Source: a virus
Lineage: Duplodnaviria > Caudoviricetes
Strand: one strand, 5' to 3'
Virus record (IMG/VR): IMGVR_UViG_3300011560_000001
Location: 96,001 to 160,000 of that record
DNA: 64,000 nt
Shown here: positions 3,697-56,515 of the stretch, in pieces
Position numbering within the stretch: position 1 is the first letter of the stretch
How the letters are laid out: the number at the start of each line of letters is the position of its first letter
Position numbers and translations under genes: made by a program
The notes under the pieces: model-generated
The model's database searches: none
Told to the model about the DNA's origin: nothing
What the model saw: only the letters and a program-made list of their open reading frames with translations

Positions 3697-6600
3697 CTAC
3701 TGCGCGTACCTTGTCCGTGTTGGAGAGATTCCTTGCGGACGATTAGGTAGCGACATCGCCTGTTGTTGAGAAGGACTTGCAGAACCCTTACCGATAGAAG
3801 AACCCTTAACGGCTTGGATTAATTCCGAAATAAGTTCATTCGTTCTACCGGTGTTCTTCTCGATGTTCTGCTGCGTGGTCAGCTGCTGTCGGAGAATTTC
3901 ACCTGCGCTACCGTAGAAGTTCTCACTCGCGGCCGATGTTTGTGTCGCAGACTGCGCGACCTGTGCAGGCGTATTCGGAACCGATATCCCTCGATTTGCG
4001 CCAGGGTTTGACGGCAAATCGCTAAGTGCTGGTGTTGATGTCGGTTGTCCTGCCGCAGCTTTCGCTGTTTCGAAACTTCCAGGTGCTGGTGATGCTTCTC
4101 CGGGTGCTGGAGCCGTACCGGCAGCCGCAGACGGTTTAGCTTCAGGGGTGGTAGAAGGTGCCGGGGCTTGCGGATCGTTGCTTACAGTTGGCGTTCCGTT
4201 TGCCTCTTGGGCTGCTTCATTCTTCACCTGCTCGGCGGTAGTCGGTCCTTCAGCTTGATCGCCTGATGTTGATCCCGATAACTCATCCATCATTTTCTTC
4301 AGGGTGCCATTCTTAGCCGCCTGAATCCAATAAGCAGAGCGCTGTTCAACGTCACGTAATCCATTATAGCCACCGTTAACCAGATAACGAACTTGGCGCA
4401 CATCACCCCGTTTCGCAGGATCGCGTAACACATTGCCTCGGTTGAGCCACCACGCGACACTACCTTCCGCCGCACCTTCCGGCGTTTCCAGGTATGATGG
4501 ATCGCTGACAAGATCTTTATTCAAGGTCTTGGACAGACGAGCGTAGTTAGCTTTACCGGTAACCTGAATGAAGCCACGTCCTAAATACTTCGCCCCGTCT
4601 CCTTTCTGCGTGTTCCCTAAGTCTTTACGATTACCGTACACGCGTTCGAACACCGCTTCCGGCCCCATGCTAATCGTCTGCGCTGCATCCTGCACGTCAC
4701 GGAATTTGTAAGGGAAGACCTGTTTAAGACGCTCTGGTGTCTTATAGTTCCCCTCACGTACGTGAGTGTAGTTCCCCGATTCATGTTCGATGTTTGCAAG
4801 GAACATCGCCATTTCCATTGGGTCGGTAATACCGCGTTTCACAGCGGATTTAACAAGCGCACGACGTCCAGCTTCGGGACCTGGTCCCGTTGCAGGTTTC
4901 TGTAAGCCCATGTTAGGCAATCCGGTAAGATCGCCGGTTGACCCCAATCCCGCACTGGAAGTAGCTGAAGCGGTAAAGCTGCTTGCACCGACTTTATTCC
5001 CATTGGGGTTGTAATTCGCTTCGGAGTTACTCATCCCGCCGGTAATGCGAGATTTCTTCTGCCAGACACCGTCTTTCTTCTCGTACCCAGCCTGCTTCAT
5101 CATCAGCTCTTGGATCTTCGATAATTTATCGGTATCCTCTTGCGATGCTTCCGCGTTCTTCTCACGAACCTTCTCTTTATCCGCATATTCTTTTAACAGA
5201 TCGAGCTGACTCTTTGTTGAACTGCTGGTGGTGTTAGCTTCAGTACCGGAGAAACCACAACTATTCCAGGACCATACAGGCTGGAGTGCACCCTTCTCAT
5301 CACGGTATTGCGTTGCGACAAGTGCTTCACCGATTTCCCAACGTTGGCTGTCTTTCAGGTTCTGTACCACGTCAGACAGAAGACCTTGACCGCCCATTTC
5401 GCTAACTTGTTGGTAGTAGGTTAAAAAGACGGGCAGGAAACGGTTATTCATCCAAGCAAACCAGATATCCTGATCCTGCTTGCTGTTAACGTCTCTTCCG
5501 AACTTCGTCGCGAATTTCTTGTAGAGTGTGACAAGATCGCCACCGTATTTAACACCTTTACCTTCAGCGACAACACCGGGTTCTACAGCGTCTTCGAGTT
5601 CCATCAGCACTTTTATCTGGCTTAGCAACGGAACCTTAATACCGTACGCACGAACACGGAGACTGGTGAGTTCATCGATGTACCCGCCAGCAACCCATTT
5701 CCTGCCACGGCGGTCTACGCTTTCAATAACCGCGGTTGCGTCAAGCTTCTGTCGTCCTTTAGCGCCAGCACTGTTGTAACGTTTATCGTTAAAACGTAAC
5801 GACGCTTTCTGACCGCGTAATGCGTTAGGCGCAACAGATTTACGTTGTGTGTCAGACATCCGTGACCAATCAGCAATAGCCTCATCATGAGAGTATTGCT
5901 TAATCTGATTCTGGTACTCTTTCTTGATGGCTTCGAGTTGTTTCAGCATCAAGGTTTTGACGTCTTGACCAGCAATATATCGCGTCGCACCAGAAGAACC
6001 CAACGGGTTAGCTTCGACGTAATACGGACCGTCAGGACTATCGGAAGGCCAGATAAACGCTTCCGACCATTTCACTTTGTTCTCACCGTTTGGATATTTA
6101 TCCATTTCCATGTATTTCTTCTCGTCCGGCATATGCTCTTTCCAGAGTTTGTACGCACGAGCGAAAACAGGAATAAAACGATGCAGATACCAGCGTTTCC
6201 ATTCGTTCATTCGGTCGGAATCTTCCAGAGACAATTCCCAGATTTCGAGAATCTTTTCCGAGTCGGCTTTCGGATCGAATCCGATGGTATCCCCGGTCAT
6301 AACCACGTGGTCGGTGAGGTATGTTTCTGTCGCAAGCAGCTTCTTATTGAAGTCTTTATCGTCCCCTTTTGCACCGTATGCAATAAGACGGAGCTTCTGC
6401 ATCGGGTCTGGCTTCTCGGCGAAATGCTGATAGATCTTCCATCCTGCATAAGCAGCCAATGCACCACCTGCAATAGCAAGCCCAACAGGTGATATAAGGA
6501 ATGCGCCTAATCCCGATAACCCGCCAACAGCGTTCAATGCGGCCCCGCCCGCCATTAACGCACCACGTCCTAACCATCCTGCCGCACTTAGTCCTCCCTT

Positions 6601-10362: not shown

Positions 10363-10607
10363 GTATACCTCCAGTTCGATACGTTCCCATGTTACGTTGG
10401 AACGTGATGCACGAAGTTTACCTTCGGCATTGATAATGTTGAAGCGTAACTTCACACATCGCCCACCTGATAAAATCAGGCAGGTACGTAACCTAATAAC
10501 TTCCTCGCCTCAAGCAAGGAAGCGATGGGTGACGCCATCACCCATTACGTCTCTCGTGTGTTCAGATGATACCGCCGCAGCCGGTGGTGGTAAAGAGGAG
10601 TGTCTCC

Positions 10608-12254
10608 ATGGCTAAAGTCAGAGAGCCGTTTAATATTAGTATTTTACACCTCGATAAACAGCAGTTACGTTTTCTCCCCAAGATCACGAGCATGAGCATT
10701 CGTGACCCAAGCACCGGTAATTTCCACGATGATGGTTTCTATTCTTACACCATCTTTGGTAGTGCGGGCAGTGAAGACCGAGACCGTCGATTTGCGGTGA
10801 TTGAATGTAAAGTTGAAATCCTGCATCCTGTCATTTACGACCGTCTCATTCGATTAAAACACCTCTATGGTGATATCATGTCGGGGAAGGCGTACGCTCG
10901 GTGGGATCCTGAACAACGCGACTTCGTTGCGTCTGATGCGTTAACAGGACAGACAGGGTACGGGTTCTTTGCACAACACGTCGCGGATATTAAGTTCGTT
11001 TCAACGGGTTCAGCTCAACGAGAGCTACGAATCAAGGTTGTCGAAGAGAACATGTTCAAAGCGATGACCCGTCACTTACTGGTTTTACCTGCGGGCTTAC
11101 GTGAAATAGAAGTAAAAGAAGGTGGGTATGAAAGCGAGCAAGAAATCACGGAGTTGTATCGTCGTTTCCTTGCAATTTCTAACACCGTCCCTGATGGATT
11201 AAAAGATTATTCCGATCCCGTTTACGACGGTCAACGCTGGAGCTTACAGAGAACATTTAACGATATCTACGCTTTGTTGTTGGATATGTTCCAAGGTAAG
11301 AAAGGGATCTTCCAAGGGAAGTTCGGCTCACGTCGTGTTTGGAACTCAACCCGTAACGTTATTTCGGCAATTAACCCCACAACGGAGGTACTAGGGTCGC
11401 CTAACCAGCCTTCCTGTACCGCAGTTCAGTTAGGGTTATACCAGATGAGCAAAGCCGCCCTACCCGTGACGCAACATGCGTTACGTACCGGTATTTTGCA
11501 GGAAATATTTGTCCGTGATATTACAGAAGTTGAACTTATCGATACCGAAACGATGGAACGTGAACGCGTCACGCTTGATCCAGACACCATCGATGACTTT
11601 ACGACATGGGACGGAATAGAACGTTTATTGAATACCTTAAGCGATCCCGGTGTGCGTAACGAACCTATCATGGTTAATGGACGATATCTTTGTCTTGTCT
11701 ATGTGAACAATGATTCGTTTCGGTTATTCCGTGGTATGAGTGAATTACCTCCGGAGATGCTTAACAAACCTGGTGCGGATGTTCACCCTATCACGTATAC
11801 CGAATTAGTGTATATCGCAGGATATAAGTACTGGAATAACCTGGCTGCGATGGTAACACGTTATCCGGTATCGGGTATGCAATCCGTCATTCCGTTAACC
11901 TGTTACGCGCGTACAACCGTCGCCGCAAAACCGAAAACCGAACTGGATAGTAACTGGGAACCAATAACGGACGAGCGATTTATTGCATGGGAATACCCAG
12001 ATTGGTTACCTAATGCTTCGTTCGTAGAAACGACTATTGTTCCTGCCCCATACCTCGCCGGACTTGGTGGGGACTTTGATGGTGATACGGTCTCGGTTAA
12101 CGTTCTTTATTCCATGGAAGCCATTGACGAAATTACCAACTCGCACAAGAAGCGAGCTTTCTGGGTAAGTGGTAAAAATAAATTCAACATCGATATTGGT
12201 TACGATACGGTTGCGTTCCTATTACGCAACTTAACGGGACCTCGTGGAGCCTAA
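10608..12254 (+). CDS. Virion RNA polymerase beta' subunit carrying the catalytic motif (phiKZ gp180-like)
   Basis: GGDFDGD catalytic motif, GKKGIFQGKFGSRRV and TRYP motifs typical of beta'; SD gaggag before ATG 10608. Confidence 0.9.
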   Translation: MAKVREPFNISILHLDKQQLRFLPKITSMSIRDPSTGNFHDDGFYSYTIFGSAGSEDRDRRFAVIECKVEILHPVIYDRLIRLKHLYGDIMSGKAYARWDPEQRDFVASDALTGQTGYGFFAQHVADIKFVSTGSAQRELRIKVVEENMFKAMTRHLLVLPAGLREIEVKEGGYESEQEITELYRRFLAISNTVPDGLKDYSDPVYDGQRWSLQRTFNDIYALLLDMFQGKKGIFQGKFGSRRVWNSTRNVISAINPTTEVLGSPNQPSCTAVQLGLYQMSKAALPVTQHALRTGILQEIFVRDITEVELIDTETMERERVTLDPDTIDDFTTWDGIERLLNTLSDPGVRNEPIMVNGRYLCLVYVNNDSFRLFRGMSELPPEMLNKPGADVHPITYTELVYIAGYKYWNNLAAMVTRYPVSGMQSVIPLTCYARTTVAAKPKTELDSNWEPITDERFIAWEYPDWLPNASFVETTIVPAPYLAGLGGDFDGDTVSVNVLYSMEAIDEITNSHKKRAFWVSGKNKFNIDIGYDTVAFLLRNLTGPRGA

Positions 12255-12257
12255 CCC

Positions 12258-15200
12258 ATGGCAAAACTTAAATACCTTGATTACTACCGACAGTTTGGTG
12301 TCAGACGCTACCAAGAGCTACTGTCACCGAGATTACGTTTAGTGCAGCTATTGCAGCTGCCGCGTTATGCTGTCTATCATTACACCGCAACGGATCCATC
12401 ATTGATAGGTCCTCCAGAAAACGAATACATGCTGAGTAAAGAAAATGCTCAACTATGGATTTCGTTTGCTGATGATCTCGCAACCAAACAGGGTGCACCT
12501 CGACGTGATCAGCGATTCCAGCTCCCACGAGCGAAATTGGATTATCGTGCATCACATCGTCGTTTTCGTTTGGTTACCGATCTAAGTACGGTGGAGAAAA
12601 ACATCAACGCTCAGATCGTTGCTAACTACGCGCATCTTAACCACATGTACATCTATCGTCCAACGCTCACCCGTTGGTATGATGAATGGTTCAACGTACG
12701 TAAAACAATTTGGTCGAAAGCCAACGAAATCGCACAGCAAAGCGATCGTCAACACTTTTTGTTGTTCCGTATACCGTCAACATTGCCGAAGATTTCGTTG
12801 ATGCGTACCACGCAACAGGCACCGACCCGCAACAACCTCATGAATTTCGCCACGCCGGAGGAGCTGTCGTTCTTTGACTTCTTCCGCTGGTTGGGAACCG
12901 ATCGTGAGAACAGCACGATGGCTTCATTAGACAGAGCCACGCTGGATAAGCTTAACGTTGTATTTACAGACGGTGTGTACTTCTTTACGCTGAATCTCGG
13001 CTTGCTGGAGGAATGGCGTACCGGGCTTGTAAAGGAAGGGGAAGAACTCGACAAAACGACACTTGAAACCTTCCAGCGTCGTTGGATGATGGCGGTAACA
13101 CGTCTGTGGTCGCAGAGCGCGAATGAAGAAGAACAGAAACAAGAAGAGGAACAGGTTCTTCGTCAAGAGCGAGATATTCTTACCGACAACCCGGATGCGG
13201 AGTACGATGATCGCGACGTCGTGCTTCCTAACGGTGAGGATCTGGCCACTGTTCTTGACCCCGATGAGTTAGAAGCGGAGTTGGTTGGTGGGTCGGATGA
13301 AGACGATGACGCTGATGCATGGAACGCCGTTGTAGAACGCACGTTCGAAGATGTCCGTGAAGTACCCGGGGTAGAAGTACAACCGGATTTCCAACCCGAT
13401 GAAGATCAGGACATTACCGACGATCTCTTCGAAGTCGTTACCGACGATACCGAAGAAGAAAAGGTTGATGTCTTTGATGCAGCAACGTTACCAAAAACAC
13501 ACGGTGAGTATATTCAGTCGTTATCGGATGCGGTGTTGGTACGCGCGAGCGATCTGGCGGATGCGGGTCAGTTAAGCGGCGTCCAATATAAAGCAGCGAT
13601 GCGTAATGCTGACGCTATCCACGAAATCGAAGCACCCGACGGTTCTGGATTAACACTTGCTGAGTATGTTGAAGTTAAACCAAAAGCCGCGAAATTAGCT
13701 CCTGCAAAGGTTATGCCGGAAGCGGATGTTATCGTCGATAAGAGCTTATGTAAATCGACGCTTGCGGTGTGGGATAAACATTACGTCGAACATGTAATGC
13801 AAAAGGACATCGCAGCTGCCGTTGTTGCGGTACAGCAAGCGGGTTACCCTGTTACGGGTTATAAAGTCGAAGATGTTGTTGACGTGATGGGCGATTATCA
13901 AGTCATCACGATTAAACTGGCTCCCGTAGGCGGTGTCCCGACCACGTTCCCGGTGATGCTGCCGAAGGTTCGTAAGGACGGCATTTATGTCGTTAACGGC
14001 ATTAAGTACCGGATGCGTAAACAACGCGTCGATAAACCTATTAGAAAGGTATCGTCATCTGAAGTTGCGTTGAGTACCGCCTACGGTAAGGTGTTTGTTA
14101 AACGTTCAGAGCGCGTCGTTAATAACGCAGGTCGTTGGCTAACACGTCAACTTACGGCGATGTATTACGATAAGTCCTCACCCCTAACCACGTTAAAACG
14201 CGGTAACGTCTTTGATCCGGCTGTCAAAGTTCCGTACTACTTCGCTGTGCTTGCACGCAATTATACCCAAATCCAATTTGCTGATTGGGATATACGTCTC
14301 GATATAAAAACGCTGCCGGAGTTCATTGGGGAAGATCGGTTCAACGAGCAGTTAGCCGAAGGGCTCCTGACGTTTGCGCGTAACACGTTGGGTGAATTCT
14401 TAGCGATCGATGAACGCAATCAGCTCTATATCTGTCAGTCAGGACAAACACCAACACCTGTAGGGACGTTCCCCGATTTCTTTGGGATCAATGCAGCTAA
14501 GATGCCGATCGAAGCCGCCGATCTTGAATTCATGGGTGTACGTATTCCGGTTGGCGTCGTTCTAAGTTATCTGGGTGGACTTACCCCGTTATTAGAACAT
14601 CTTAAAGCAAACTATCGTACTGTTCCTCGCGGCTCTCGTATGGGGTTAGCACCCGATGAATTCGCGGTGAGCTTTGACGACGAAAGTTTGATCTTCAGTA
14701 AAGACGATCGCATGACGACGTTGTTGCTGGGTGGGTTTAACGAGTACCGTAACTACATTGGTTACGCTCGCGGCGCTTTTGACAATCGAGATATCTATTT
14801 TAACGTTGTCGATGGTGCTGGACTTAAGGTTCGTCATTTACGCGAACTTGAACTCATGGAGCGTCTTTTCGTTGATCCGGTAAGCCGTACGTTGCTACAG
14901 AACATGGGAGAACCTACCGATTTCGCCATGTTGTTACTGCGTGCTGTTGAACTGCTTCTGGATGACTGGGCACCTAACACCAACGATGTGAACTACCAAC
15001 GTTTTAAAACGTACGATAAGTTCGCTGAATTGGTGTATAAGGACCTGGTTGGTGCTATTCGTCAGAATGAGAACAGCAGTCAAGGAAATCGCCAGAAAAT
15101 CTCAATCAGTCCGGTGAGCGTTTGGAACCAAATCCTTGACGACAGTGCTTCCATCGTCATTGATGAAACCAACCCAATGCTGGATATCAAGCAAGGTGAA

Positions 15201-15464
15201 GAAGCAACGATGACCGGTATCGGGGGTCGTTCAAAGACATCGCTTCGACGTGCACGCGATCGTGAATACGACAAATCAGACATCGGTGTGGTATCTGAAG
15301 GTACGAAAGACAGTGGGGATGTAGGTATCTCTGCTTATCTTGCACCTAACGCAAACATTGTGTCTGTATACGGTGAAACGAAACCTTACGACGAGAAAAC
15401 GGATGGTAGCTCGTCAATAATGAGTACATCAGCACTTGCAGTACCTGCTGCTGATAGAGATGAT
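12258..15464 (+). CDS. Virion RNA polymerase beta subunit (phiKZ gp178-like), exon 1
   Basis: 1069 codons with beta motifs (DGIYVVNG, GIGGRS, SEGTKDSGDVG); ends ...PAADRDD, matching bacterial beta PFLEHDD(ANR), where the intron starts. Confidence 0.9.
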
Positions 15465-17047
15465 TAAGGCTTCATTGTAAACAGAATTAAGGCTATATTA
15501 CGAAAGTGTAGTTAGTTTCACTGCACAAGAGGAATATAGTCAATGAGTGAGAAGGTATTTAAGACCGTAACGGAATTCCCATTCCTGGAGATATCCATAG
15601 ATGGAACATTGCGTAACAAGGAATCGAAGTTTGAATACTTGCCCATCATCATTGCTGGATATTATCGTTATTCGTTTCGAGGTCATGATGGAACACTGGT
15701 TTACCGTTCCATGCATAGACTTCTAATGTTAACGTTCCGGAACATCGATGATGCGCATTTGCTCCATGTGAACCACAAGGACGGCAACAGACTTAATAAC
15801 TACCTTGATCCCGACGGTAACACCGAGAATGACAATCTTGAATGGGTTACGCAGAAAGAGAACAACCAGCATGCTCGCATTATGAACATGCGTAAACGTT
15901 CAATTGCTGCCTACGGTAAACCTATTCAGGTTCGTGATGTTGATACCGGTGTTGTAACCAGATATCCATCCATGACGGAAGCGGCACGCGATCTTGGTGT
16001 GAATATCGACTTCATTCATCATCGTGTCTATAGAGGCAAACAGCGAGCGTTTCCTGAACGTAAGCAGTACCGCAAAGATTACGGCGATGAACCGTGGCGT
16101 ATTCCTACCAAATACGAGTTAGCAACGTTGACGGATACGGGAAGTAAGGGTGTGATTGCAAGGTCAACGATAACAAAAGAGATTCATCTTTTCGAATCAT
16201 TGACTGAATTCGCGAATCACATTGGTGTTAAGTTATCCACTGCGTCGATGTACGTTAACGACAAGAACCAACCTGTCGTTAATGGTTGTTATCAAGTTAA
16301 GTGGGTTACTGATGAGACGCCATGGCGAGAAGTCGAAGATAGTATCCTGGAGTTGGAGAAGACAACCAACAAACGTGCTATTGTCGTCATTCCTGAAAAT
16401 GATGTACCTCTGTTGTACCTTTCGGCCGTCGATTGCGCTGAAGAAATGGGTATATCTACCACGTTACTCAATTACCGTTTGAAGTCCGATGGGATGACTA
16501 AATTTCCTGATGGAAAACGCTATATTTACTATTCTGTTTACAAAGAGCGGGTCCGTTTATACGGTGACGTATGGACGAGATTCATTGAATTGCGGGGACG
16601 CCCAATGCTGCCTTCAGCCAAAGCGGAAACGGAAACGTTAGACGTGCGAGAAGCGAGACGTATTGCTCGTAAAGCAGGCTTTAAAAATGAAGAGTTGACC
16701 GCGACAAAAGTTCGTGGTCCGCAGGCCAAGGGTAATCCGCAGCCAATCGCCTAAGGATCGTTGTGAAACGTTCTAGGGTGACGGTTCAACGACTAAGGGA
16801 TTCATCCCCCTGTACCCCTCGAGTGAGGCATTCTCCTTGGATAAGAGAATGGCGCTGGATGCGCTGGGAAGAAGTGAACTCTCGTTGAGGTGCTGAAGAA
16901 GCACCGTTTGAAACGAGATGTGATATAGTCTGCTCTTGCGTGAGAACGTAAGCGGGAGGTGATGCGCCTATCATCACCTCCGGGATAAGGCTAACGACCT
17001 TATCTGAACAATCCAGACGCACAGTAATTGTATTTTGCTGGATTTCG
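15465..17047 (+). mobile_element. Group I self-splicing intron (1583 nt) in the vRNAP beta gene, carrying a homing endonuclease
   Basis: Exon ends in U, intron starts TAA and ends in G; core elements P aattgcgggga (~16588), Q aatccgcagc (16734), R gttcaacgacta (16784), S gatatagtc (16922); splicing restores DRDD|PKRLVFIG in frame. Confidence 0.9.
15543..16754 (+). CDS. Intron-encoded HNH homing endonuclease with three C-terminal HTH (NUMOD1/IENR1-like) repeats
   Basis: HRL...HVNHKDGNRLNN...NLEWVTQKENNQHA HNH signature; repeats YPSMTEAARDLGV, FESLTEFANHIGV, YLSAVDCAEEMGI; SD gagga. Confidence 0.9.
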   Translation: MSEKVFKTVTEFPFLEISIDGTLRNKESKFEYLPIIIAGYYRYSFRGHDGTLVYRSMHRLLMLTFRNIDDAHLLHVNHKDGNRLNNYLDPDGNTENDNLEWVTQKENNQHARIMNMRKRSIAAYGKPIQVRDVDTGVVTRYPSMTEAARDLGVNIDFIHHRVYRGKQRAFPERKQYRKDYGDEPWRIPTKYELATLTDTGSKGVIARSTITKEIHLFESLTEFANHIGVKLSTASMYVNDKNQPVVNGCYQVKWVTDETPWREVEDSILELEKTTNKRAIVVIPENDVPLLYLSAVDCAEEMGISTTLLNYRLKSDGMTKFPDGKRYIYYSVYKERVRLYGDVWTRFIELRGRPMLPSAKAETETLDVREARRIARKAGFKNEELTATKVRGPQAKGNPQPIA

Positions 17048-18187
17048 CCAAAGCGTCTCGTATTTATAGGTATCCAACACAACCGCATGATTGCTGCTGA
17101 AGGTTACGATGTACAACCGTGGCGTACTGGTGGCGAGACTGTCATCGCGCATCGTGTTGGTAAACTCTTCGCAGCAGCTGCCCAAGGCGACGGTGTTGTT
17201 AAGAAGGTCACCAAAACTGCGCTTACGATACAATACGACGATCCAGAGTTAGGGGAAGAGGTTTTCCAGCTCGGTACGATAATCGGGAAAGGACCAGGTA
17301 AGTATTATCCTCACGATCTCATTACCGATTATAAAGTCGGGGATCGCGTTAAGGATCAGGATGTGGTGGTCTTCCATCGTCTTTATTTTAAACGCGATTG
17401 GTGGAACCCAGGTCAGGTTGTTTGGCGCGCAGGTGTTCTGTCTCTTGTCGGTATTCTGGATATTCCAGAGACCCACGAGGACAGTTCGTATATCTTCGAC
17501 AATCTTGCTGATCGTCTCGTAACACCATCGATTAAGAGCCGTACGCTCATCGTTGACGCCCATCTCAACATTCGCGGTCTCGTGAAAATCGGCGATCATG
17601 TTGAACCTCGAACGATCCTTGCAACACTGGAAGAACCGATTGCAACCGATCTGAGCGATGAGAGTCAGGAAGCCGTTGAAGCATTACGTCGTATGAGTCA
17701 GTATAACCCACGTGCCGACGTTCATGGTGAAGTTGTACAGATCGATGTATTGTACCGCGCTCAGATTGAGGATATGAGTGAAACCATGGCGGCGCTCGTC
17801 GGTGAAGCGGATAAAGCACGAGCTAAACGCGTCAAGGAACTGAAACTCAACGAAGCAACTACGGGGCGTATCAATAACAGTAACGTGAGAATAGACGGTA
17901 ATCCGTTAGGCGAGAACCAGATCGCCATCCGTATTTTCATGCGTTACGACCTTGGTGCGGGGATGGGTGATAAAGGTACCTTCGCAGCACAAGCGAAATC
18001 CGTTGTCTCTTCCGTGGGTCATGGTGTGAACAAAACCGAAGACGGGCACACCCTTGATGCTATCTTCAGTGGCACCAGTATCGCTAACCGTATCATCGGT
18101 TCACCGGAAGTGGTTGGGACTGTGAATCTTGGTCTCCTCTACGCGACGGAACGAGCTGTTGATATTTACTTTAACGACGCTAAATAA
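17048..18187 (+). CDS. Virion RNA polymerase beta subunit, exon 2
   Basis: Begins cca aag cgt (PKR) right after the terminal G; in frame with the 17087 ORF; beta motifs HEDS and GDKG...AQAKSVVS; spliced protein is 1448 aa. Confidence 0.9.
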   Translation, partial: PKRLVFIGIQHNRMIAAEGYDVQPWRTGGETVIAHRVGKLFAAAAQGDGVVKKVTKTALTIQYDDPELGEEVFQLGTIIGKGPGKYYPHDLITDYKVGDRVKDQDVVVFHRLYFKRDWWNPGQVVWRAGVLSLVGILDIPETHEDSSYIFDNLADRLVTPSIKSRTLIVDAHLNIRGLVKIGDHVEPRTILATLEEPIATDLSDESQEAVEALRRMSQYNPRADVHGEVVQIDVLYRAQIEDMSETMAALVGEADKARAKRVKELKLNEATTGRINNSNVRIDGNPLGENQIAIRIFMRYDLGAGMGDKGTFAAQAKSVVSSVGHGVNKTEDGHTLDAIFSGTSIANRIIGSPEVVGTVNLGLLYATERAVDIYFNDAK

Positions 18188-52326: not shown

Positions 52327-54222
52327 ATGGGCTTAGACGTACGTAATAACGGTAACGATAATGTAGAAATTCGTGCAGCTGAAACCCGCACCGCACAACG
52401 TGCTGATGAGGCGCTGGAAACCGCTGCAGATTTTGCCGACCGTCCTAAAGTAACTCATACGATGCGTACGATCAACCGTACACTGAGCCGTCGTATCAGC
52501 CGTAATACCGGCTCCGAGCAGGTACTGAATCTCCGTCGTCTGATGGAGAAATATCTGGAAGATACCCAGTTCAAAGACGACTTCATCTTTGTTGCGGTTG
52601 ACCCGAACCAGTACAGCGTACCGTATCCGACCCTGGTTGTTATGAGCGGTGCAAAAGTAGGTGATCATAACCACTTCTTCGGTTACGTCCTGCCGCTGGT
52701 TGCTGGTCTGGCTCCGCTGCCGCGTCGTGAAGAACAAGGTCCGCATGGTAACATTCTGGTACCGCGTACCTGGGTTGATAACCTGAACGGTACGTTCATC
52801 AACGAAGTCATGGCGGCAATGTATTCAGCTATTGGTGGTAAGTCTAACGGTACTGTTCGTATCGCTGGTCTGGCTGTGGTGACCAATGAAATCACCGCTG
52901 AATCCGCGCATCTGGCAACCACCCTGCTGTCTGCTGCAGATAACGCAATCCAAACCGCGATCGAAATCCGTCTCGGTGATAAACTGGGTCTGCCGCAGTT
53001 CAACCTGGGCATGATGGCAAGCGATCAGCCAATCAGCAGCGTTCAGTACAACACCAGCGGTATGCAGGACAGCGATATTGTTGGTAACCCTGTGCGTTCT
53101 GACATCACTGTAACTATCTCTAACCGCATCCGTCAAGCGATGAGCGATTACGATAGTCAACAGCGTCTGGTCGCCACCACCGGTTACATTGACCTGACCT
53201 ACAGCCCGCAGAACCCGACCTTCAACCAAGGCCCTGTTCTGGTTAACGGCTATCCGGTACCGCCGACTGTACAATACCAGCCGCGTTACGTGATGACCAG
53301 CGCTTACCCGCTGGAGCTGGATGCGTTCACACCGAACAGCTTCGTGCTGGGTCTGATTGGTACCATCGCTACACTGAACAGCGGTATGGCGTGGGCACAG
53401 TCTTTAATCAGCAACGCTGCTCGTGGCATCGGTCCTCATAACCCGGGTGCTCTGGCGATGGTACTGGATCCGGAAGTTACCGCACCGCTGGATCTGTCTA
53501 CTCAAACCAACGAGCAGATTTACAAGTTCCTGCAACAGGTACTGTATCCGTCTCTGCTGATTTCTATCGATGTACCGGAAGAAGGTGAATATAGCTGGTT
53601 GCTGCGTATGATCCCTGCAGCTGAGAAGATCTTTACGGGCAACGTTGACGGTAAAGTTCAAGAAATCTCCGAAGGCTATAAAGCACTCTATCGTGCATTC
53701 GATGATACTACCCTGGGTTGCTTCAGCAAGAAATATCAATACGGCCAACCGTTAGTGTACGCTACCGGTAACCGTATCCCGCTGGGTCACTACAACCACC
53801 AGGATGGCCACCGTCACGATATTCGTGATATGGACGATCTGTACATGATGAACATCACTAACCCGGATACCGTAGAAGCTTGGGAAGACAGCTTCGACCG
53901 TACCGATATGTCGATGTCTCAGCGTGTTGTCGCTCGTCACGAAATCATCGATCGTGTTCTGTCTGGTAGCTGGGAACAAACCGGCTGGGCAATGCGTTAC
54001 GATTTCGAACCGAATGCGCTTGCGGCATTGATTGAAGCGGCTGCCGAAGCTGGCTTCACCATCCGTCCTGAGAACATCCAGCATCTGGCAGGTACCGCTG
54101 TTCGTGGTAACGCAGCAGCACGTGCTCGTGGTCTGGGTAACATCTCCGGCAACATCTATGCACGTAGCGATCGTCCGAATGTTGGCGGTAACAACATGGG
54201 TGGGGCATTCAACCTGTTCTAA
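52327..54222 (+). CDS. chmA: Chimallin, major phage nuclear shell protein
   Basis: 631 aa, MGLDVRNNGNDNVEIRAAE...GGAFNLF, recognised as Goslar-type ChmA; canonical position before nvRNAP beta'; highly expressed codon bias. Confidence 0.93.
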   Translation: MGLDVRNNGNDNVEIRAAETRTAQRADEALETAADFADRPKVTHTMRTINRTLSRRISRNTGSEQVLNLRRLMEKYLEDTQFKDDFIFVAVDPNQYSVPYPTLVVMSGAKVGDHNHFFGYVLPLVAGLAPLPRREEQGPHGNILVPRTWVDNLNGTFINEVMAAMYSAIGGKSNGTVRIAGLAVVTNEITAESAHLATTLLSAADNAIQTAIEIRLGDKLGLPQFNLGMMASDQPISSVQYNTSGMQDSDIVGNPVRSDITVTISNRIRQAMSDYDSQQRLVATTGYIDLTYSPQNPTFNQGPVLVNGYPVPPTVQYQPRYVMTSAYPLELDAFTPNSFVLGLIGTIATLNSGMAWAQSLISNAARGIGPHNPGALAMVLDPEVTAPLDLSTQTNEQIYKFLQQVLYPSLLISIDVPEEGEYSWLLRMIPAAEKIFTGNVDGKVQEISEGYKALYRAFDDTTLGCFSKKYQYGQPLVYATGNRIPLGHYNHQDGHRHDIRDMDDLYMMNITNPDTVEAWEDSFDRTDMSMSQRVVARHEIIDRVLSGSWEQTGWAMRYDFEPNALAALIEAAAEAGFTIRPENIQHLAGTAVRGNAAARARGLGNISGNIYARSDRPNVGGNNMGGAFNLF

Positions 54223-54314: not shown

Positions 54315-55565
54315 ATGGCCATCATGCTCGATATCGTGAGTTTCGATAGACAGCTCGCAGAACTTCCCTTTACGCCGATTTTGTTGAACGATTACGATAC
54401 AAAAGTCGTCGAAGAGAAGAAGAAATTAAACAGTTTTATCACCCGTGTTTACTCCAGCGATACGTTGGATATCACGCCACAATGTGGGTGCGGTTTCTAC
54501 AATCGTGGTGAGCTGCTCGGCACGGTGTGTCCAAACTGTAAAACGGTTGTGACCTACCCAGCAGAACAGGAGATTCGTTCGACGGTCTGGGCGCGTGTTC
54601 CTGAAGGAATCGATGCGTTCATTAACCCGTTGGTCCATCTCGTGCTGGCAAGCGAGTTGAATATCAAAAGCTTCGAAACGATGACGTGGCTCATTGATGC
54701 CAGTTACCGTCCAAATGTAAAACGACCCATTGAACTCAAGAACTATCTGGAGCAGCAATTTGATGTATTCGGGATACGGCGTGGCGTAAATAGCTTTATA
54801 CAGAACTTCGATCGCATCATGGAGATCTTGTATAAAGGACCTACGTTACGTGGACCGAAGAACACAGAGAAAGTTGACACGCTACGAGAATTCATCCGTA
54901 TCCATCGTGATAAGTTCTTCAGTCAGTACATCAGCTTTCCTGCAGCCATGATGTTCGTTATCGAGAATACGCCAACCGGTCGTTATGCGGATAGCAAAAT
55001 GGAAGGTGCGATCGATGCTATCGGTACGTTGAATAGTATCTATCACCCAACAACACCTTTGAGCGCCAGAAAGAAAGAAAACTGGATGGCGAAAGTGCAA
55101 TTGAAGCTGCTGCAATACCACGCGGCGATTTTCGATGAGTTCATCGGTAAGAAGAAAGGTATTACACGTAAAAACATATTAGGTACATTACATCCATTCA
55201 CCACGCGTACCGTAATCAGTTCGATAACAGCGAACCATCGTTATTATCATCTGCATTTCCCATACGCACCATTTACTTTAACCAATAAAGAACATATCCA
55301 ATCCAAGTTATTCCATCGCGGTTATTCACCGAGAGCAGCACGTGCGTTCGTTGCGGAACATGTCCGTAATTATCATCCGATGATGAGCGAGCTGCACGAT
55401 GAGCTTATTGCTGATACACCGTTCGATGGGATTGTGTGTGGCTTTGTTCGAAACCCATCACTTGACCGAAGCAGTAACCAATGTCTTGAAATCACCAAGG
55501 TTAAACGCGATCCGCAGGATAACACCATCGGGTTAAGCGTGATGATCCTTAAGGGATACAACGCT
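54315..55565 (+). CDS. Non-virion RNA polymerase beta' subunit (phiKZ gp55-like), exon 1
   Basis: Zn-binding CGCG...CPNC, KKKGITRKNILG, RNPSL motifs; ends ...KGYNA just before the expected DFDGD. Confidence 0.9.
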
Positions 55566-55915
55566 TCAAATGAGGCCCTGCCTTCCGAAAGGAAGAGCTT
55601 GAATTCCGTGAATTGCTGAGACGGGCTAAAGCCACTCTGCCCTTGTGGGAGCCGATAAGGCGGAAATAAGTGAGTGGATGTTGGGAGGCTTCAACGACAG
55701 TCCTGAACCAGGATGCCACCCCAACGTACAATGTTCAATCAGCAGCCTAGCCGCCGATTATCGGTGGAAGGTTCAACGATCATGTCCCTCGAATTCGCTG
55801 AGGGTAGCGCGGAACACCCTTCGTGGGTGATGAGATGATCTCTCCGTCCTGGTAACACCAGGAGCTGCAGGTAATGCTGCGGGTATGGAGTAGCGAACCA
55901 TACTGAAGATACGTG
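55566..55915 (+). mobile_element. ORF-less group I intron A (350 nt)
   Basis: P1 gct|tca..tgaggc with U.G at the splice site; P3 ttccgtg/cgcggaa; P aattgctg, Q aatcagcag, R gttcaacgatca, S gagatgatc; terminal G before gac ttt gac. Confidence 0.88.
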
Positions 55916-55933
55916 GACTTTGACGGTGATGCC
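55916..55933 (+). CDS. nvRNAP beta' micro-exon 2 (18 nt) encoding DFDGDA
   Basis: gac ttt gac ggt gat gcc between two intron cores; joining gives NADFDGDAMNNHIVP, with the same spacing as bacterial NADFDGDQMAVHVP. Confidence 0.8.
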
Positions 55934-56290
55934 AGAGCCATGGCCTTATCTCCTGAAAAGGAGAATATGCATTCCGTGAATTGCTGGAATAGGCTAAAGC
56001 CGTTACGCCTCGTAAGAGGAACCGATAAGGTAGAAACAAGGTAACGGATGTACGCGGCTTCAATGAAAATCCCTTTAATGGGACGCCTACCGTACGTAAC
56101 AATGTCCAATCAGCAGCGAAGCTCCGTTTAGGAGAACGTTCAACGAGTAAGCGGTCTCAAGCGAGATCCAGCGCGGAAGTCCTACGTTCCATTTGGAATA
56201 TGGACATGATATACTCTCAACATCCTGGTAACACCAGGAGCTGCAGGTAATGCTGCGGATACGAAGTAGCGATTCGTATTGAAGATATTG
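55934..56290 (+). mobile_element. ORF-less group I intron B (357 nt), sister of intron A
   Basis: Same core: attccgtgaattgctg, aatcagcagc, R gttcaacgagta, S gatatactc, P3 partner cgcggaa; 36-nt identity with intron A; terminal G before atg aac aac. Confidence 0.85.
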
Positions 56291-56515
56291 ATGAACAACC
56301 ATATCGTCCCAGACATTTGGACTGCGAAACATTTCGGGAGATTCCGACCCGAACTCGGTATGATGGATAATAACGTACCTTTTAAGGTATCTAAGAAATG
56401 TGAACATCAGTCACCGGTTATTTCTACCATTGACTGTTGGTTCAACGAATTCGTGGAGGGCGATGACGTAGAACCTTATCTTGACGAAATAGAAGCAACT
56501 AACAACCATTGCTAA
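56291..56515 (+). CDS. nvRNAP beta' subunit, exon 3
   Basis: MNNHIVPD... continues the catalytic loop; spliced product is 497 aa. Confidence 0.8.
   Translation: MNNHIVPDIWTAKHFGRFRPELGMMDNNVPFKVSKKCEHQSPVISTIDCWFNEFVEGDDVEPYLDEIEATNNHC

Follow-up and report, generated by a model that had tools for sequence, protein, structure and literature searches.

Tandem group I introns around a predicted 18-nucleotide exon carrying the catalytic loop of a non-virion RNA polymerase subunit in a Goslar-like giant phage

How can a giant phage make an active RNA polymerase from a gene whose reading frame stops before the catalytic aspartates? The question is raised by a stretch of viral DNA of 64,000 nucleotides (the window), part of a full virus record of 237,533 nt, in which the unspliced ORF of an RNA polymerase gene encodes 434 aa and lacks the catalytic motif. 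A first-pass annotation, made from the letters alone, had read this gene as split by twin group I introns that leave the active-site codons on a micro-exon, and had expected gene callers to miss that exon; they do, calling the 434-aa ORF, which has no Pfam hit, and mostly no exon 3.

By sequence, the window is assigned to Goslarvirus, as a Goslar-like giant E. coli phage: the exon 1 protein matches gp188 of Escherichia phage vB_EcoM_Goslar at 100% identity, and no other GenBank phage exceeds 36%. The interrupted gene is identified as that of the N-terminal beta-prime subunit of the non-virion RNA polymerase (nvRNAP beta-prime-N) because it follows the chimallin gene and matches phrog_2987, as phiKZ gp55 follows gp54; the order of the two adjacent genes is the same as in phiKZ, and in the phrog_2987 profile exon 1 covers positions 1-417 (E 5.5e-115) and exon 3 positions 426-475 (E 4e-5). 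An intron-free homologue, P0002 (64% identical), matches PDB 7ogp_A, the phiKZ nvRNAP (E 2.8e-79), and at 496 aa, close in length to the predicted spliced protein, the intron-free homologue aligns to chain A of that structure across the catalytic motif. Exon 1 differs from seven relatives by 26-103 synonymous and 0-3 non-synonymous codons; change is almost all synonymous, and the gene is therefore in use, under strong purifying selection. A whole-genome search found no second, intact copy of nvRNAP beta-prime-N. Another DFDGD gene, at 10566-12254, was rejected as a back-up copy: it is a member of phrog_2986, a separate PHROG family, adjoins the other RNAP beta gene, and is taken as the virion enzyme.

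That other RNAP beta gene (phrog_3148, window 12258-18187) is itself interrupted: a group I intron (Rfam, 51.4 bits at 16529-16952) separates ORF 12258-15467 from ORF 17087-18187 and carries an HNH gene (15543-16754) that overlaps the core. It resembles the intron of PhiPA3 gp210, which lies in the virion beta subunit gene. Outside the window, on the minus strand, lie a group I-like core of 47 bits (G000:C1:1028-1548) and a weak one of 12.7 bits (94874-95192).

The layout at the catalytic loop is set out in Table 1. The exon limits proposed in the first-pass annotation (exon 1 reaching KGYNA at 55565, DFDGD(A) at 55916-55933, MNNHIVP from 56291) are all found in the sequence, and its remark that the micro-exon is out of frame with exon 1 holds, given an intron 1 of 350 nt; intron 2, of 357 nt, keeps the frame but contains stops. 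Past 55565 (T) the exon 1 frame adds 17 residues and then stops. A DFDGD-coding 15-mer would be expected by chance about 5e-5 times in the 725 nt from intron 1 through intron 2, and the exon 3 protein is 64% identical to residues 424-492 of the intron-free homologue P0029. Removal of intron 1 alone would restore DFDGD followed by 36 unrelated residues, and skipping of the micro-exon would give an in-frame protein of 491 aa without the catalytic aspartates; the catalytic loop NADFDGD-x-(M/L)N is restored only by the junctions 55565/55916 and 55933/56291. A twintron was considered and rejected, as the introns stand in tandem with coding sequence between them and intron 1 occurs alone in three relatives (L004-L006).

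Table 1. Features of the interrupted gene and its upstream neighbour, in window coordinates
Feature	Position	Strand	Remarks
Chimallin (nuclear shell) gene	52327..54222	+	directly upstream of nvRNAP beta-prime-N
Exon 1, nvRNAP beta-prime-N	54315..55565	+	417 codons, ends ...KGYNA; phrog_2987; ATG with AGGAG element 7 nt upstream
Intron 1, group I	55566..55915	+	350 nt, no endonuclease gene; Rfam match, helices, covariation, intron-minus alleles
Intron 1, P3	55604-55610/55808-55814	+	
Intron 1, P4	55614-55619/55739-55744	+	
Intron 1, P6	55745-55747/55770-55772	+	
Intron 1, P7	55778-55782/55836-55840	+	
36-nt block (P9-P9.1)	55847..55882	+	identical to 56223-56258 in intron 2
Micro-exon	55916..55933	+	18 nt, DFDGDA, all three Mg-binding aspartates; invariant in allele; six-position profile gap
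Intron 2, group I	55934..56290	+	357 nt, no endonuclease gene; Rfam match, helices, covariation
Intron 2, internal guide CAUGGC	55939..55944	+	complements last three micro-exon bases and first three of exon 3 (P1 and P10)
Intron 2, P3	55972-55978/56172-56178	+	
Intron 2, P4	55982-55987/56110-56115	+	
Intron 2, P6	56116-56118/56137-56139	+	
Intron 2, P7	56145-56149/56212-56216	+	
Exon 3	56291..56515	+	74 codons then stop, starts MNNHIVP; phrog_2987; homologue P0029

Enumeration of the junction sets that restore NADFDGD gives a unique solution for intron 1 and leaves many options for intron 2, whose junction is settled because intron-minus relatives read straight through. In L004-L006, which have a lone intron 1 (97-98% identical to that of the window) and no intron 2, DFDGDA runs directly into MNNH; in L010, L071, L077 and L079, which have neither window intron and one upstream intron, NADFDGDAMN is contiguous; and a sister clade (L106-L108, 64% protein identity) is intron-free, its allele matching the predicted spliced junction at 35 of 39 nt. 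The gap in the family profile between exon 1 (ending at 417) and exon 3 (from 424) is exactly six positions. On this comparison of alleles, both junctions predicted earlier, gct/gac and gcc/atg, are fixed independently by natural intron-minus alleles. A 15-nt exon ending in U was rejected, as it drops a residue between DGD and MN common to all homologues, and the alternative intron 2 3' sites at 56281, 56284 and 56293 are excluded by the intron-lacking alleles. The same allele recurs in ten of ten other assemblies, chosen through the exon 1 read-through protein and not through intron 2, with an identical micro-exon, the same C at its end and the same guide, most intron differences falling in peripheral parts; an assembly error at the C (position -1) is thereby rejected.

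That each gap holds a group I core ending in a terminal G, as the first-pass annotation had it, is borne out by drawable helices and covariation, and in part by the covariance-model search for which it had called: over 5.5 kb Rfam RF00028 hits both gaps, but the scores of 26.4 bits (E 0.001) and 28.0 bits (E 0.00035) fall short of the model's gathering score of 50; in a whole-genome search intron 2 scores 31.5 bits and intron 1 has no separate listing. Helices P1, P2, P3, P4, P6, P6a, P7, P9, P9.1 and P9.2 can be drawn in both introns, with the P3-P7 core and the P/Q/R/S order, and hairpins of the kind that a possible IA2 assignment would call for (P7.1 between P7 and P3, with P9.1 and P9.2 extensions) are present. 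Across eight homologous introns 97.8% of alignment cells pair and two-sided changes occur in 15 of 52 pairs, as against 0-2 with slid partners, counts biased towards the structure because it was drawn on intron 2 and because the eight rows represent three related types; the two-sided changes lie in P6 (one) and P7 (two), and also in P6a, P9 and P9.2. The predicted guanosine-binding site, a G-C pair at the start of P7, is invariant in all eight rows, and the terminal G at the two 3' splice sites is G55915, just before the micro-exon, and G56290, just before exon 3, at positions fixed by intron-minus alleles. Covariation of this kind supports, and does not prove, function of both introns. The longest Met-initiated frames, of 50 and 34 aa in introns 1 and 2, leave no room for a homing endonuclease, and no endonuclease-bearing form of the window introns was found at their two sites among the loci read. 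The introns are about 70% identical to each other. The P9.1-P9.2 module at the 3' end of intron 1 (window 55863-55910) is 92-100% identical over 31-48 nt to that of an intron at a neighbouring site (site A below; L003 5559-5604), the rest being dissimilar, as would be expected if modules had been exchanged between intron families.

At the 5' splice site a pyrimidine pairs with a guide G in both introns. Intron 1 has the usual wobble pair, U55565.G55574, and intron 2 has instead a C-G pair, C55933-G55942, counted as the rare form; after removal of intron 1, P1 of intron 2 is predicted to form with a pair probability of 0.90. C-G pairs at the 5' splice site are rare, and in the Tetrahymena ribozyme they lower docking and accuracy; group I introns of fungal mitochondria with such a pair were reportedly described by Hur and Waring in 1995. 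In fungal group I introns C-G is accepted at this position besides U-G (PMC3562157), and the likeness to the fungal mitochondrial cases lies in the cytidine at -1 paired with a guide G (PMC3562157). The window case differs from them in being in a phage, in the active-site codons of a presumably essential gene, and in that near-identical phages have U.G at the very same site, which makes a natural matched pair. Intron 2 may be adapted to a host allele with a GCC codon, because the sister clade carries GCC at this site (site D below), where it reads GCC-ATG without an intron. No donor of intron 2 was found, site D of the sister clade being intron-free, and a search of IMG/VR with the 5' end of intron 2 gave no match; exact 20-nt matches to its start in two bacterial MAGs (L109 362-381; L110 3477-3496), with no BLAST similarity beyond them, are probably chance.

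The window arrangement is one allele of a polymorphic hotspot. Across 37 Goslarvirus contigs there are five insertion sites within 26 nt, of which each phage has one to three occupied. Site A interrupts the Tyr codon, 8 nt upstream of intron 1, B follows NA, B2 follows NAD, C interrupts the Phe codon, 5 nt downstream of intron 1, and D follows DGDA. The window has B+D, with its 18-nt exon, and Goslar C+D, with one of 13 nt; elsewhere A+C leaves 13 nt, A+C+D two exons of 13 nt each and A+B2 11 nt, and B, A and C are each also found as the sole intron. At sites A and C introns occur both with and without an HNH gene. Most of these loci were picked by routes that favour interrupted genes; among ten relatives found by exon 1 similarity alone, none is intron-free and all have at least one intron. 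Three tandem ORF-less group I introns leave two 13-nt exons across YNADFDGDA in L003 (5232-6366), and likewise in L007, L008, L009 and L011, and L080 (about 4745-6500) has a site-A intron with an HNH gene, an 11-nt exon and then an intron after NAD whose P7 is that of window intron 1. Farther away, the motif is intact in 38 of 47 distant IMG/VR relatives and interrupted in nine. Two of the nine, both distant chimalliviruses, have tandem introns whose junctions were placed by eye: L022 (about 5175-6556), with an exon of about 9 nt (FDG) and a second intron starting with the first five bases of window intron 2, and L027 (about 5225-5970), with an exon of about 20 nt.

The closest known system is Goslar itself (MK327938.1), whose gp188 locus shares the identical exon 1 protein and carries a tandem pair of group I introns at the motif. 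In GenBank the core of the first is the only one annotated; beyond it we find a 13-nt exon and another group I intron without an ORF (L001 7691-8058 = 168214-167847), neither of them annotated, and the annotated gp185 starts inside this second intron. The first Goslar intron, which interrupts the Phe codon and carries an HNH gene, is not the same element as window intron 1, and the second lies at the site of window intron 2, with which it is 86% identical, but has U.G. This site-D intron has P1/P2 like window intron 1 and a core like intron 2 (window 55566-55610 versus L001 7704-7750), and in Goslar-type alleles the five 5'-exon bases at site B equal those at site D; the mosaic suggests either movement between sites B and D or recombination of sibling introns.

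In phiKZ, splicing fuses gp55 and gp56.1 into the nvRNAP subunit, and the enzyme is indispensable (10.64898/2026.09.21.753271). The split phiKZ gp55 gene named in the first-pass annotation is a precedent with one intron; a long-read study of phiKZ did not detect the predicted splicing (PMC10914365). The likeness to phiKZ gp55/gp56 (HNH)/gp56.1 consists in an orthologous gene beside chimallin, a group I core inside the NADFDGD codons and a spliced fusion as the subunit. There, however, a single intron with an HNH gene follows the Asn codon, 3 nt upstream of window intron 1 (site B), and the whole of ADFDGD lies on the last exon, without a micro-exon. Closely related tandem phage introns around a very short exon are known from Staphylococcus phage Twort, where orf142, according to a later summary, has three group I introns and a 23-nt exon between two similar IA2 introns, with exon skipping (PMC10136302); orf142 is a tail tube gene and not an enzyme active site, the window exon is shorter, and skipping was seen in Twort. 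Exon skipping has also been documented in a Bastillevirinae phage. Multi-intron RNAP genes occur in Bacillus phage AR9 and the S. aureus MarsHill-like jumbo phages, in the accessible accounts of which a catalytic micro-exon is not described. Jumbo-phage RNAP introns, the phiKZ intron in the motif, tandem phage introns with a short exon, and C-G sites were thus already known separately; in the literature covered, which largely leaves out subscription papers, we found no description of a catalytic micro-exon, of the tandem case or of the multi-site polymorphism. The overall interpretation of the first-pass annotation is supported; it does not mention the C-G site of intron 2, and the arrangement is one allele of a hotspot with close precedents.

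We consider it highly probable that two related group I ribozymes, 18 nt apart, are spliced separately, and that the micro-exon arose as a side effect of repeated invasion by selfish introns, whose accumulation accurate splicing makes tolerable, and does not serve regulation. We infer that the introns are spliced, that most product includes the micro-exon, that the gene is essential to this phage, and the course of its history. Each intron would fold by itself and leave by the ordinary two-step guanosine-initiated reaction, intron 1 using its U.G site and intron 2 its C-G site with a guide matched to the GCC alanine codon, to give a subunit of 497 aa with the NADFDGDAMN loop intact. Two accurate splices would be needed for active nvRNAP, and middle and late transcription would depend on them. 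The introns would have homed repeatedly into the most conserved codons of an essential gene, their endonuclease genes often being lost later, and the ribozymes would persist because a deletion has to be exact to be viable (PMC12908238); shielding from the endonucleases of rivals may help to keep them in place. With identical Tetrahymena introns in tandem, skipping of a short exon is the major route, taken either via a chimeric ribozyme or when the second intron acts at the first junction (PMC10136302). A chimeric ribozyme, and hence exon skipping, is less likely here because P6 and P7 differ between the introns: in cross-pairing P6 keeps one of three pairs and P7 one or two of five, and P3, P4 and the 36-nt P9 block can cross-pair. 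Against separate splicing as a by-product of invasion speak the sub-threshold Rfam scores, the rare C-G site, a hairpin considered below, this cross-pairing of P3, P4 and P9, the lack of an endonuclease-carrying form of either intron among the loci read, and the negative long-read result for phiKZ (PMC10914365).

Tentatively, and compatibly with that explanation, the ORF-less introns may be kept by selection as armour, breaking the target sites of HNH homing endonucleases of co-infecting relatives. HNH-carrying introns do occupy sites A and C in near-identical phages, every one of the ten relatives found by exon 1 similarity alone bears an intron, and an intron HNH enzyme is known to harm a rival chimallivirus by cutting its RNAP gene (PMC11620839; PMC12908238). 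Intron 1 never occurs together with A or C in the 37 contigs, a pattern that equally fits a minimum exon length (the exons would be of 8 and 5 nt) or shared ancestry; moreover, the sister clade and most distant relatives keep the motif intact, and the idea rests on presumed cleavage sites of these HNH enzymes. A broader version, in which the loop codons are a battleground of co-infecting phages, ORF-less introns confer immunity, and the C-G site plus a skippable exon form a ribozyme-timed switch between active and dead enzyme, seems unlikely.

Improbable, too, is the switch taken by itself: an intron pair kept to time the appearance of active nvRNAP, with C-G making intron 2 slow or conditional and skipping yielding a dead 491-aa subunit that assembles. 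Skipping would keep the frame, as it does not with the 11- and 13-nt exons of close relatives; the C-G site is invariant in the allele; and skipping is on record in the Bastillevirinae phage and for the 23-nt Twort exon. Other close relatives do with a single intron, or with U.G at the same site. A canonical U.G would let the intron 2 guide pair with the 3' end of exon 1, as happens on the stepwise route of engineered tandem introns (PMC10136302), but this distal pairing is weak (-2.8 versus -8.5 kcal/mol for the proper one, pair probability 0.01 versus 0.90). In the local fold of the unspliced RNA a 10-bp hairpin (window 55912-55942), in which the end of intron 1 and the micro-exon pair with the guide of intron 2, hides the intron 1 3' site and P1 of intron 2. 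As a selected ordering device it is not supported: among the 64 synonymous versions of the exon the native one takes rank 17, and 35 of the 64 also suppress P1. It may still be a folding trap. A regulatory role is possible but unlikely, because near-identical phages use many other layouts.

It is very improbable that only intron 1 splices, intron 2 being disabled by its C-G pair, and that the enzyme consists of a piece ending in DFDGDA plus 36 junk residues together with a separate 74-aa exon 3 peptide. Removal of intron 1 does suffice to restore DFDGD, exon 3 begins with ATG, and in jumbo phages RNAP subunits frequently come in pieces (PMC7598289). Against this, intron 2 has a guide that matches the junction perfectly, including the C, which points to adaptation and not decay, its core is intact and covarying, C-G is accepted as a 5' site in the fungal introns (PMC3562157), and the break would come right after the catalytic loop, inside the barrel of the established RNAP structure. 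An annotated ORF that stops in intron 1 without the motif might suggest faulty assembly, or a dead gene for which the virion or host polymerase stands in. Both are effectively refuted by the same layout in ten independent assemblies, the unspliced 434-aa product on record on 84 contigs, and the almost exclusively synonymous change in exon 1.

Group I introns favour active-site codons (PMC12908238), and the window is an unusually dense case of this known habit. Every Goslarvirus locus read has the gene interrupted, and existing annotations, that of the model phage Goslar among them, show a shortened subunit that lacks the active site; cloning or modelling of the Goslar nvRNAP requires the spliced sequence. 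At 9-18 nt, these natural exons between group I ribozymes fall below the 23 nt reported for Twort and offer a test of how two ribozymes share a tiny exon without skipping it; with matched introns of U.G and C-G type at one site, the reason for the conservation of U.G can be tested directly. Five sites within 26 nt, occupied with and without endonucleases in culturable phages, make the intron life cycle, and the idea of introns as weapon versus armour, open to experiment.
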